Shown here piece by piece: positions 3,197-4,531 of a stretch of 37,226 bases of DNA (position 1 is its first letter; every line of letters begins with the position of its first letter). Under the pieces are notes generated by a model. It saw only the letters and a program-made list of their open reading frames with translations. It was not told the DNA's origin and made no database searches. The DNA is taken from IMG/VR virus record IMGVR_UViG_2529292736_000004, one strand, 5' to 3'. The translations under genes were made by a program, and so were the position numbers. This DNA is from a virus (Duplodnaviria; Heunggongvirae; Uroviricota; Caudoviricetes).

Positions 3197-3226
3197 GAAA
3201 ACCCGGCGCTGAGGCCGGGTTTTTCT
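3197..3226 (-). terminator. Intrinsic terminator ending the cI operon (tIMM-like); near-symmetric, so potentially bidirectional
   Basis: aaaacccggc-gctgag-gccgggtttttc: GC-rich stem with T-runs on both sides, directly downstream of the 258-aa ORF stop at 3225. The sequence here matches the lambda tIMM region from memory. Confidence 0.7.
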
Positions 3227-4001
3227 AGGCTACCAGAGACTCAATCCAAGAGTCTCTGGTATGGAATGGCAACACTCGTGCGGTATCATTAAATAGTAGT
3301 GATAGTTGCTGTAGCTCAGGTGTTAACCCATCGCTGTCAACTATTACAAATCTATTGTTTATGTCAGGAACGACCTGACTTAAGTCAACAATCTTCCCAA
3401 CTGTTGAGTGGGCAGTATTCCATCCCTTACTGCTGGCAAGGCTTACCGTAAACCCGCGTTTTGGTGGTATTAGTCGAGACTCATTCCTTAGCGTTAACGG
3501 AACAGTAATGTTATGCCCACTAATACCTTTCACTTTTTCCTTTAAGGCTAGTCGCTTCCCAAGCCCTGCTGATTTTAAGTAACTGATTACACATTTTTCG
3601 AACTTATCGTCTTTGACCTCAGCATACCAATCAGCAGTTTGGGCGGATGCAAGAATCCCACCACGAATAACATTTGCAGTTACCTGTCCAACGGACGACT
3701 CATCTGCCCACGCAGATATCTCTCCAGAATCATTTAATGAAATTCCTTGCGAAGCGAGTGATGACCTAATCAGATCAATTTTCTTTTTAGTCAGGTGGAT
3801 GCCGCGTGATTCAATATTCATCAATGTATCGCAGTAGTCTGTAACCCTATACTGACCACTCATCTCTTGAACGAATACACTTATCTGCTCACAATCATCG
3901 TAGTATGTGAAGGGACTAATAACGCGCAGCAACGTGTCGCTCATTGGGTGGCATTCAAACCCGAGCTTAGATATGACTGTTGAACACGTTACATTTCCCA
4001 T
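3225..4001 (-). CDS. Hypothetical protein (258 aa), distal gene of a two-gene cassette in the rexA/rexB position
   Basis: Long ORF in a low-GC block, same strand as cI, overlapping the upstream ORF by 13 nt and ending at the operon terminator. I do not recognise the family. The start may instead be the internal Met (MSDTLL..., 3944). Confidence 0.6.
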   Translation of the reverse strand: MGNVTCSTVISKLGFECHPMSDTLLRVISPFTYYDDCEQISVFVQEMSGQYRVTDYCDTLMNIESRGIHLTKKKIDLIRSSLASQGISLNDSGEISAWADESSVGQVTANVIRGGILASAQTADWYAEVKDDKFEKCVISYLKSAGLGKRLALKEKVKGISGHNITVPLTLRNESRLIPPKRGFTVSLASSKGWNTAHSTVGKIVDLSQVVPDINNRFVIVDSDGLTPELQQLSLLFNDTARVLPFHTRDSWIESLVA

Positions 4002-4531
4002 GATAGCTGACCTGATTTATCTTGATTAGGTAAAGGTGGGCTGCCTTCATATATGATATTAAGCGCCTCGCAAAAATAATTCCAGTAGCCAAAAAAATCA
4101 TCTGGCTTGATGTTCGTTTCAAGCTTAAGTGCAATTTCTTCCCCAGCTGATTCGAAGTACATGTGATAGTGAGGACCTCGAGCCACCTCAACAAAATCTG
4201 GATGGTTCACTATAGATTTATTACGGTGTGGCTTGTTATCCGCAGGGTACGGGTCAAGCGCGTAAATGCGCCTGTCATGAAGAAACATCACAAATGAAAT
4301 CTTCACTATATCCACCCCTTCAACGATAGGAGGACGCCAGTGAAGCATAAATCTTATGCCTGTGATTGGGTTGCCAATTTCATCAAAAGCTTTGAGATCC
4401 AATTTAAACCAGATTGGGGTTCGTCCCTCACTTCCGGTCCATGTAACTCCGCTAAAAGTTACTTTTTTCAAGCGAGTAATAGCTTGGTCAACCTCTTTCT
4501 GGGTAGGCTTAAAGTCGCCTTTTTTAGCCAC
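3989..4531 (-). CDS. Hypothetical protein (180 aa), proximal gene of the cassette downstream of cI
   Basis: ORF starting with GTG at 4531, with GGTGA about 9 nt upstream, 46 nt after the cI stop. No family recognised; no obvious transmembrane segment. Confidence 0.6.
   Translation of the reverse strand: MAKKGDFKPTQKEVDQAITRLKKVTFSGVTWTGSEGRTPIWFKLDLKAFDEIGNPITGIRFMLHWRPPIVEGVDIVKISFVMFLHDRRIYALDPYPADNKPHRNKSIVNHPDFVEVARGPHYHMYFESAGEEIALKLETNIKPDDFFGYWNYFCEALNIIYEGSPPLPNQDKSGQLSWEM

Follow-up and report, generated by a model that had tools for sequence, protein, structure and literature searches.

We analyzed the whole of IMG/VR virus record IMGVR_UViG_2529292736_000004 (37,226 nucleotides; hereafter, the window), which holds the immunity region of a lambda-like prophage. 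Two genes in this region, which we call A (encoding 180 amino acids) and B (258 amino acids), lie where phage lambda has rexA and rexB. The pair is already catalogued as a defense candidate by two prediction resources, PADLOC and DefensePredictor, and a function in defense seems likely to us. Our preferred reading, which we hold with modest confidence, is that A and B are the two proteins of a cytoplasmic anti-phage module of the PDC-M24 type (for superinfection exclusion or abortive infection), which temperate phages carry in their repressor operons as exchangeable cargo.

The presumed operon has these parts (all positions are in the window):

4578..5279, minus strand: cI-type prophage repressor gene (Pfam Peptidase_S24, E = 1.3e-28; HTH_3, E = 2e-10), presumed to be the upstream gene of the operon

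4532..4577, minus strand: spacer of 46 nt between cI and A, which belongs to the swapped cargo; homology to lambda, ev099, and HK542 stops at 4571-4578

3989..4531, minus strand: gene A, 180 amino acids, with a GTG start; identical to WP_001074607.1

3989..4001, minus strand: overlap of A and B (13 nt, ATGGGAAATGTAA), where A ends and B starts

3225..4001, minus strand: gene B, 258 amino acids, two domains, PDC-M24B family; identical to WP_000528776.1

3639..4001, minus strand: N-terminal domain of B (amino acids 1-121), DUF1828

3228..3608, minus strand: C-terminal domain of B (amino acids 132-258), with a predicted PD-(D/E)xK fold, divergent DUF1829

3194..3224, minus strand: intrinsic terminator, identical to lambda tIMM (A-tract, CCCGGC/GCCGGG stem, and U-tract; -20.2 kcal/mol, z = -3.06)

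An earlier note on this DNA, made from its letters alone, had described A and B as overlapping open reading frames downstream of cI on the same strand and had placed their end at a tIMM-like terminator. This is what we found: the two frames share 13 nt, and the terminator hairpin, which is directly 3' of the stop codon of B (3225-3227), has the same sequence as the hairpin after lambda rexB. The junctions of the cassette are the stop codon of cI and the tIMM hairpin, so it is located between cI and tIMM and on the strand of cI. The immunity-region records of mEp332, HK542, and HK244 have a "terminator" feature at the corresponding position.

The note had also placed the cassette in the rexA-rexB slot, with flanks that read as lambda and an interior that does not, and a direct comparison with lambda bears this out. 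Window positions 3099-3226 are 90.6% identical to lambda 35708-35831 (tIMM) and positions 4578-4988 are 94.9% identical to lambda 37227-37637 (the C-terminal half of cI), while nothing between 3226 and 4578 matches lambda and there is no nucleotide similarity to lambda 35832-37226 (rexB-rexA). Because the homology runs up to both junctions and is absent between them, the cassette is a base-for-base replacement of lambda 35832-37226. The C-terminal half of the repressor is 95% identical to lambda cI (RefSeq has a 231-amino-acid "LexA family protein" at 4578-5279). The cassette was also said to be AT-richer than its flanks, and its GC content is indeed lower (43.2%, versus 46.2% in each immediate flank and 51.8% in the whole window), but the difference from the flanks is marginal.

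Other phages break at the same junctions. In ev099, HK542, and mEp332, homology to the window is interrupted at 3221-3224 and at 4571-4578, and the slot holds different cargo: in ev099, a NYN-domain protein that weakly matches HEC-09; in HK542, two hypothetical proteins; and in mEp332, a 345-amino-acid protein. None of this cargo matches a known PADLOC system. The interval between cI and N is a documented mosaic hotspot, where rexAB and BstA are found (Owen et al. 2021, PMC8585504).

Given this layout, A and B would be transcribed in the lysogen together with cI from PRM or PRE, as lambda rexAB is, and transcription would end at tIMM, so that both proteins would be present before another phage invades. 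Scans of the window predicted no terminator between cI and A and, within the cassette, no promoter above chance. A possible ribosome-binding site (GGTGA) lies in the spacer, 9 nt 5' of the GTG start of A, and the 13-nt overlap between the genes implies that their translation is coupled.

The PDC-M24B models are the only PADLOC models that B matches (E = 5.4e-7 and 6.7e-7). Among 45 diverse relatives of B, 39 match PDC-M24B, with a best E value of 8.8e-55, and the gene order of PDC-M24 (A first and B next to it, on one strand) is that of the window. Because the wider B family matches PDC-M24B strongly, we consider the pair in the window to be a divergent branch of PDC-M24. The reason for nominating PDC-M24 (cassette CAS_00098) as a defense candidate was that its relatives occur within BREX, DISARM, or type I restriction-modification (RM) loci (Payne et al., bioRxiv 10.1101/2024.01.29.577857). 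Furthermore, DefensePredictor (Science 2026, PMC13092281, Tables S5 and S10) labels each member of a sister pair, WP_001062368.1 and WP_000968518.1, as "Predicted novel defense gene", with mean log-odds of 4.9-6.3, and the cluster identifier of its 185-amino-acid A-type protein is WP_001074607.1, which is the A protein of this window. We refer to the sister pair as the type 2 allele and to the pair in the window as type 1. The earlier note had proposed a candidate two-component defense or exclusion module, and three independent lines support that candidacy: the paired PDC-M24 matches, which are weak for the window's own proteins; the DefensePredictor label; and the documented hotspot.

The same note had called the cassette unrecognized, and this did not survive database searches: besides the relation to PDC-M24, both proteins are in PHROG families (B matches phrog_1960 with E = 2.8e-119), and B belongs to Pfam family DUF1828 (E = 2.5e-10; 40.9 bits against a curated cut-off of 22; residues 30-112). 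DUF1828 is also matched by 40 of the 45 diverse relatives of B. The predicted structure of B has two domains and a predicted local distance difference test (pLDDT) score of 82. The N-terminal domain is predicted to have a fold like those of type III secretion chaperones, DUF2170, and XisI, and the residues conserved across the family in this domain are C6, C17, P30, D36, D55, G67, G93, and E94. The C-terminal domain is predicted to have the alpha-beta-beta-beta-alpha-beta arrangement of the PD-(D/E)xK restriction-endonuclease fold. By sequence, B has no match to Pfam DUF1829 at E ≤ 1; distant homologues of B in phage phi644-2 and in a Helicobacter prophage match DUF1829 above the cut-off, and for the sister allele, HHpred gives 98.8% to DUF1829, a family in the PDDEXK clan (DefensePredictor Table S5, PMC13092281).

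No catalytic motif had been obvious from the letters. This was correct for the canonical D...(D/E)xK residues, which are absent, and it missed that the fold of B is of a nuclease type. Across 45 diverse members, strands beta-1 to beta-3 have no conserved acidic residue, in this branch or in the family as a whole, and the (D/E)xK motif is missing. In B itself, beta-2 starts with S-G-H163 and beta-3 reads K-R-G-F-T-V-S; the wider family often has Q or E in beta-3 where this branch has Phe. The residues that are conserved in the C-terminal domain are F134, G159-x-S161-G162-H163, W194, K203, D206, R217, and D222. This domain might bind DNA, bind phosphate, or have a re-tooled active site. That the G-x-S-G-H loop provides the nucleophile of a serine hydrolase, or is a phosphate-binding loop, is speculation on our part. 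Against solved structures, the single sequence of B gave only T-complex noise (E = 0.1), and the profile of its family gave no match.

Protein A is soluble and beta-rich, and its C-terminal third resembles DUF6978 and PDC-M24A. Its predicted model has a pLDDT of 86.6 and a predicted template modeling (pTM) score of 0.82, and neither the predicted fold, the single sequence of A, nor the profile of the A family matched any solved structure. R88, H121-x-H123, F153, and N158 are conserved, as are D93, H102, N104, and Y125 within the Enterobacterales. In the predicted model, the arginine and the His-x-His motif cluster on adjacent beta-strands. A scores 23.6 bits against Pfam DUF6978, where the cut-off is 29.6, over its C-terminal 62 residues only, and so A is not a member of that family; 24 of 32 relatives of A match DUF6978 at E ≤ 0.01. 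This points to a remote homology between the sequences of A and DUF6978 rather than to curated membership. Similarly, PDC-M24A is the only PADLOC family that A matches (E = 3.8e-4, residues 98-160 only), and each of the three PDC-M24A models is matched by 5 to 13 of the 32 relatives (E ≤ 0.01). Neither A nor B has a signal peptide-like segment or a membrane segment (Kyte-Doolittle scores over 19 residues peak at 1.22 in A and 0.79 in B), which agrees with the earlier note on transmembrane segments.

The sequences of A and B identify them as real genes under strong purifying selection. In comparison with relatives that are 88-91% identical, the nonsynonymous rate pN is 0.05-0.06 and the synonymous rate pS is 0.6-0.77, for a dN/dS of about 0.05. 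When 1.84 billion representative proteins were searched with a profile of B, only 213 clusters reached E ≤ 0.001, almost all of them with about 250 amino acids, and homologues are full-length down to around 20% identity. We therefore doubt very strongly that A and B are chance reading frames or decaying remnants without function. A remnant might be expected in a defective prophage, such as this one, and contig L057 has frameshifts in both genes. The low pN relative to pS, the architecture of around 250 amino acids that the 213 clusters share, the full-length distant homologues, and the confident structure predictions all argue against it, and this pattern of conservation effectively refutes the idea. 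As for L057, we rejected its frameshifts as a sign of decay or of toxicity, as the indels are in homopolymer runs and look like sequencing errors.

The two genes are inherited together. Every one of the 80 IMG/VR contigs that encode a relative of B has a relative of A directly upstream of it, and allele types are never mixed. By tblastn, the matches to A and B are offset by -10 in 44 of 45 type 1 viral contigs, as they are in the window; the exception is L057. The two alleles, which are the main ones in E. coli, share 40% amino-acid identity in A and 51% in B. The sister allele occupies the same slot in phages ev207, ev017, PhiR57_1, and PhiR63_2 and in an Stx1a phage, and the PhiR phage records annotate both genes as "hypothetical protein". 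Nucleotide homology between the two alleles restarts within the genes, some 44 nt into A and some 33 nt into B, which is the pattern expected from allelic replacement by flanking recombination. We also observed that A diverges faster than B at all depths (88 vs. 91%, 78 vs. 83%, 65 vs. 74%, and 40 vs. 51% identity; window 3258-4487 compared with L001, which is phage PhiR63_2). This hints that A is either the less constrained partner or the one that determines specificity.

Among 5426 complete E. coli genomes, type 1 is present in 61, including O104:H4, and type 2 is present in 241, including Nissle 1917 and ATCC 11775. Both alleles are single-copy and chromosomal, and neither was found among 72,556 plasmids. 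That the alleles occur in both commensal and pathogenic E. coli would also suit a role in lysogenic conversion that has nothing to do with phages (in the stress tolerance, metabolism, or virulence of the host, for example), with the slot being simply a highly expressed site for morons. But both proteins appear to be cytoplasmic, their sole PADLOC matches are to PDC-M24A and PDC-M24B, and the DefensePredictor scores of the two sister genes are defense-like, and so we consider such a function to be improbable. It also seems rather unlikely that the pair is a toxin-antitoxin or addiction module that stabilizes the prophage, with one protein as the toxin (for instance, a non-canonical nuclease), the other as its neutralizer, and any anti-phage effect being secondary. 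Neither protein has homology to a toxin or antitoxin family in Pfam, NCBIfam, or PADLOC. Both ideas are weakened by the absence of the pair from plasmids, by the PDC-M24 relatives outside of prophages, and by the diversity of the repressors that the pair accompanies.

The earlier note had suggested a survey of lambdoid prophages for the same pair at the cI-tIMM locus. In the 80 viral contigs, all of which have both genes, the nearest upstream open reading frame on the same strand encodes a repressor (a helix-turn-helix/Peptidase_S24 protein or a short helix-turn-helix protein) in at least 74. These upstream repressors form at least 12 clusters at 60% identity, including short non-S24 types, and the largest cluster (34 contigs) reads as a close relative of lambda cI. 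The same layout of repressor and pair is found in a Klebsiella Rac-like prophage, where the repressor is a helix-turn-helix protein of 128 amino acids, and in prophages of Yersinia, Serratia, and Erwinia. In a Providencia prophage, the pair is beside cro and no repressor gene is called there. Other genes can share the slot: in five IMG/VR contigs (L060-L064), a DUF3024 gene (113-amino-acid protein) lies between the repressor and the pair, and in the Yersinia prophage (L006 3895-4377), a 160-amino-acid protein without a family does so.

More distant phages have the same layout, with 20-29% identity to the pair: Pseudomonas phage phPA-G, Burkholderia phage phi644-2 (gp48/gp47), and a Helicobacter prophage. 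In Pseudomonas phage VB_PaD_phPA-G (PP083311), an unannotated A-like open reading frame (L012 3483-4004; hhalign probability of 96%) overlaps the start of the B homologue. A protein of 216 amino acids with a weak match to PADLOC PDC-S48 (E = 3e-6) lies between the CI-like repressor and the pair in this phage, which suggests that the slot can accumulate several candidate defense genes. In Burkholderia and Helicobacter, the small partner proteins have only a weak alignment to A (hhalign probability of 37-57%), but they retain R88, G-x-H121-x-H123, F153, and N158. In phi644-2, the upstream genes on the same strand have no family match.

Tight linkage to repressors across three proteobacterial classes is also what one might see if A and B were accessories of the lysis-lysogeny switch or of induction, such as DNA-bound modulators of repressor function or of the timing of induction, and a DNA-enzyme fold without catalytic residues, as in B, would suit DNA binding. 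However, a specific protein-protein partnership is hard to reconcile with at least 12 unrelated repressor clusters, short non-S24 repressors among them. PDC-M24 relatives are also found outside of prophages, within BREX, DISARM, or RM loci. And ev099, HK542, and mEp332, which have the same C-terminal domain of cI, and lambda itself carry entirely different cargo in the slot. We therefore view a role in the switch as unlikely, and the absence of the pair from plasmids weakens this idea as well.

If A and B are a defense module, as we favor, it might work as follows. Once coupled in translation through the overlap, A and B would form a complex. B would be both sensor and scaffold: a phage-derived protein or ligand would be recognized by its chaperone-like DUF1828 domain, and its PD-(D/E)xK-fold domain would bind DNA or perhaps cut it via a non-canonical site (S161, H163, K203, D206, and D222). 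A, with its invariant arginine and His-x-His, could be a second catalytic or metal-binding subunit, or it could be a regulator that restrains B until infection. Activation would then block the replication of the invader or kill the infected cell. More tentatively still, and with less confidence, the pair could represent a new two-component immune mechanism that temperate phages of Gamma-, Beta-, and Epsilonproteobacteria carry specifically in their repressor operons, with a non-canonical effector that combines the Arg/His-x-His site of A, a protein without a structurally solved relative, with a chaperone-like sensor in B on a re-tooled PD-(D/E)xK scaffold (the G-x-S-G-H loop, K203, and D206).

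Several points weigh against a defense module. The matches of A to DUF6978 and to PDC-M24A are below the cut-offs and cover about 60 residues. With no catalytic residues and with Phe in beta-3, B is unlikely to be a canonical metal-dependent nuclease, and a nuclease effector is doubtful. Co-transcription with cI is deduced from the layout, and the strict linkage to repressor genes would fit a role in the control of lysogeny equally well. PDC-M24 is listed among 145 untested candidates (bioRxiv 10.1101/2024.01.29.577857), and the sister pair is not in the DefensePredictor table of transcription units that were cloned and screened. Finally, nothing functional or experimental turned up in the literature when we searched it for DUF1828, DUF6978, PDC-M24, the RefSeq accessions, and mEp332.

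Beyond the terminator, the order of genes is lambda-like:

2515-2859: N

1917-2498, plus strand: sieB, a SieB superinfection-exclusion gene (PF14163, E = 7e-25; phrog_1301) that adjoins N

The SieB gene (1917-2498, plus strand) gives the same immunity region a second exclusion function. At the start of the window, positions 1-535 are the 3' end of an IS21-like element (istB), which abuts the early-left region of the prophage. Homology to the intact LST200A prophage starts only at position 525, so the gam/bet/exo/int side was cut off and the prophage is defective. Compared with the LST200A prophage (99% identical), gene O lacks 1 bp in an A-run and is therefore split near position 6490 (open reading frames at 6034-6564 and 6444-6932); the frameshift could be real and inactivating, or it could be a sequencing error in a homopolymer. 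Although the prophage is otherwise decaying (the IS21 truncation and the frameshifted O), the A-B operon is intact.

One or the other allele is present in about 5.6% of complete E. coli genomes (61 + 241 of 5426), the type strain among them, and the pair may be among the more widespread cargoes of the rexAB slot. If the pair is protective, it would add a defense family whose two proteins have no characterized relatives, and it would give a biological role to DUF1828, DUF1829, and DUF6978. It would also provide a tractable case in a lambda background, in which rexAB, the pair, and other cargo could be compared isogenically to understand why defense genes ride on repressor transcripts. The pair is also relevant to phage-therapy and probiotic strains in which it occurs.

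Among known systems, HepS was rejected, because it is an unrelated HEPN protein. Shedu (SduA) and restriction-type PD-(D/E)xK effectors differ from B in that B lacks the catalytic D...(D/E)xK residues, and there is no PADLOC match to Shedu. Lambda RexA/RexB shares with A-B the slot between the cI stop codon and tIMM, the strand, the number of genes, the identical terminator, and presumably expression in the lysogen from repressor promoters. In contrast, there is no sequence similarity (at E ≤ 1, A and B matched no Rex family in Pfam or PADLOC), and the folds of A and B are unrelated to anything described for Rex. RexB is a polytopic inner-membrane protein, whereas A and B have no membrane segments. 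BstA of prophage BTP1 is, like A-B, directly downstream of diverse prophage repressors and ends at an intrinsic terminator, but it is a single protein with a cognate DNA anti-defense element (aba), and it has no homology to A or B. DUF1829 was newly implicated in defense by DS-6B, the non-kinase partner in the validated system DS-6/HipAD, for which DNA binding was predicted (PMC13092281). DS-6/HipAD is also a two-gene system, and DS-6B (DUF3037 + DUF1829) has a C-terminal domain of the DUF1829 type, from the PDDEXK clan. It differs from A-B in its HipA-like kinase partner and in the DUF3037 N-terminus of DS-6B; here, the partner is DUF6978-like, the N-terminus is DUF1828, and B lacks a sequence match to DUF1829. 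The DefensePredictor pair is the sister allele in the same slot, with the difference that it is a prediction from machine learning only. PDC-M24 has the same gene order as A-B and similar sizes (146-148 positions in the A models and 255-256 in the B models); the enterobacterial branch is highly divergent from it and is found in the repressor operons of prophages instead of in BREX, DISARM, or RM loci.

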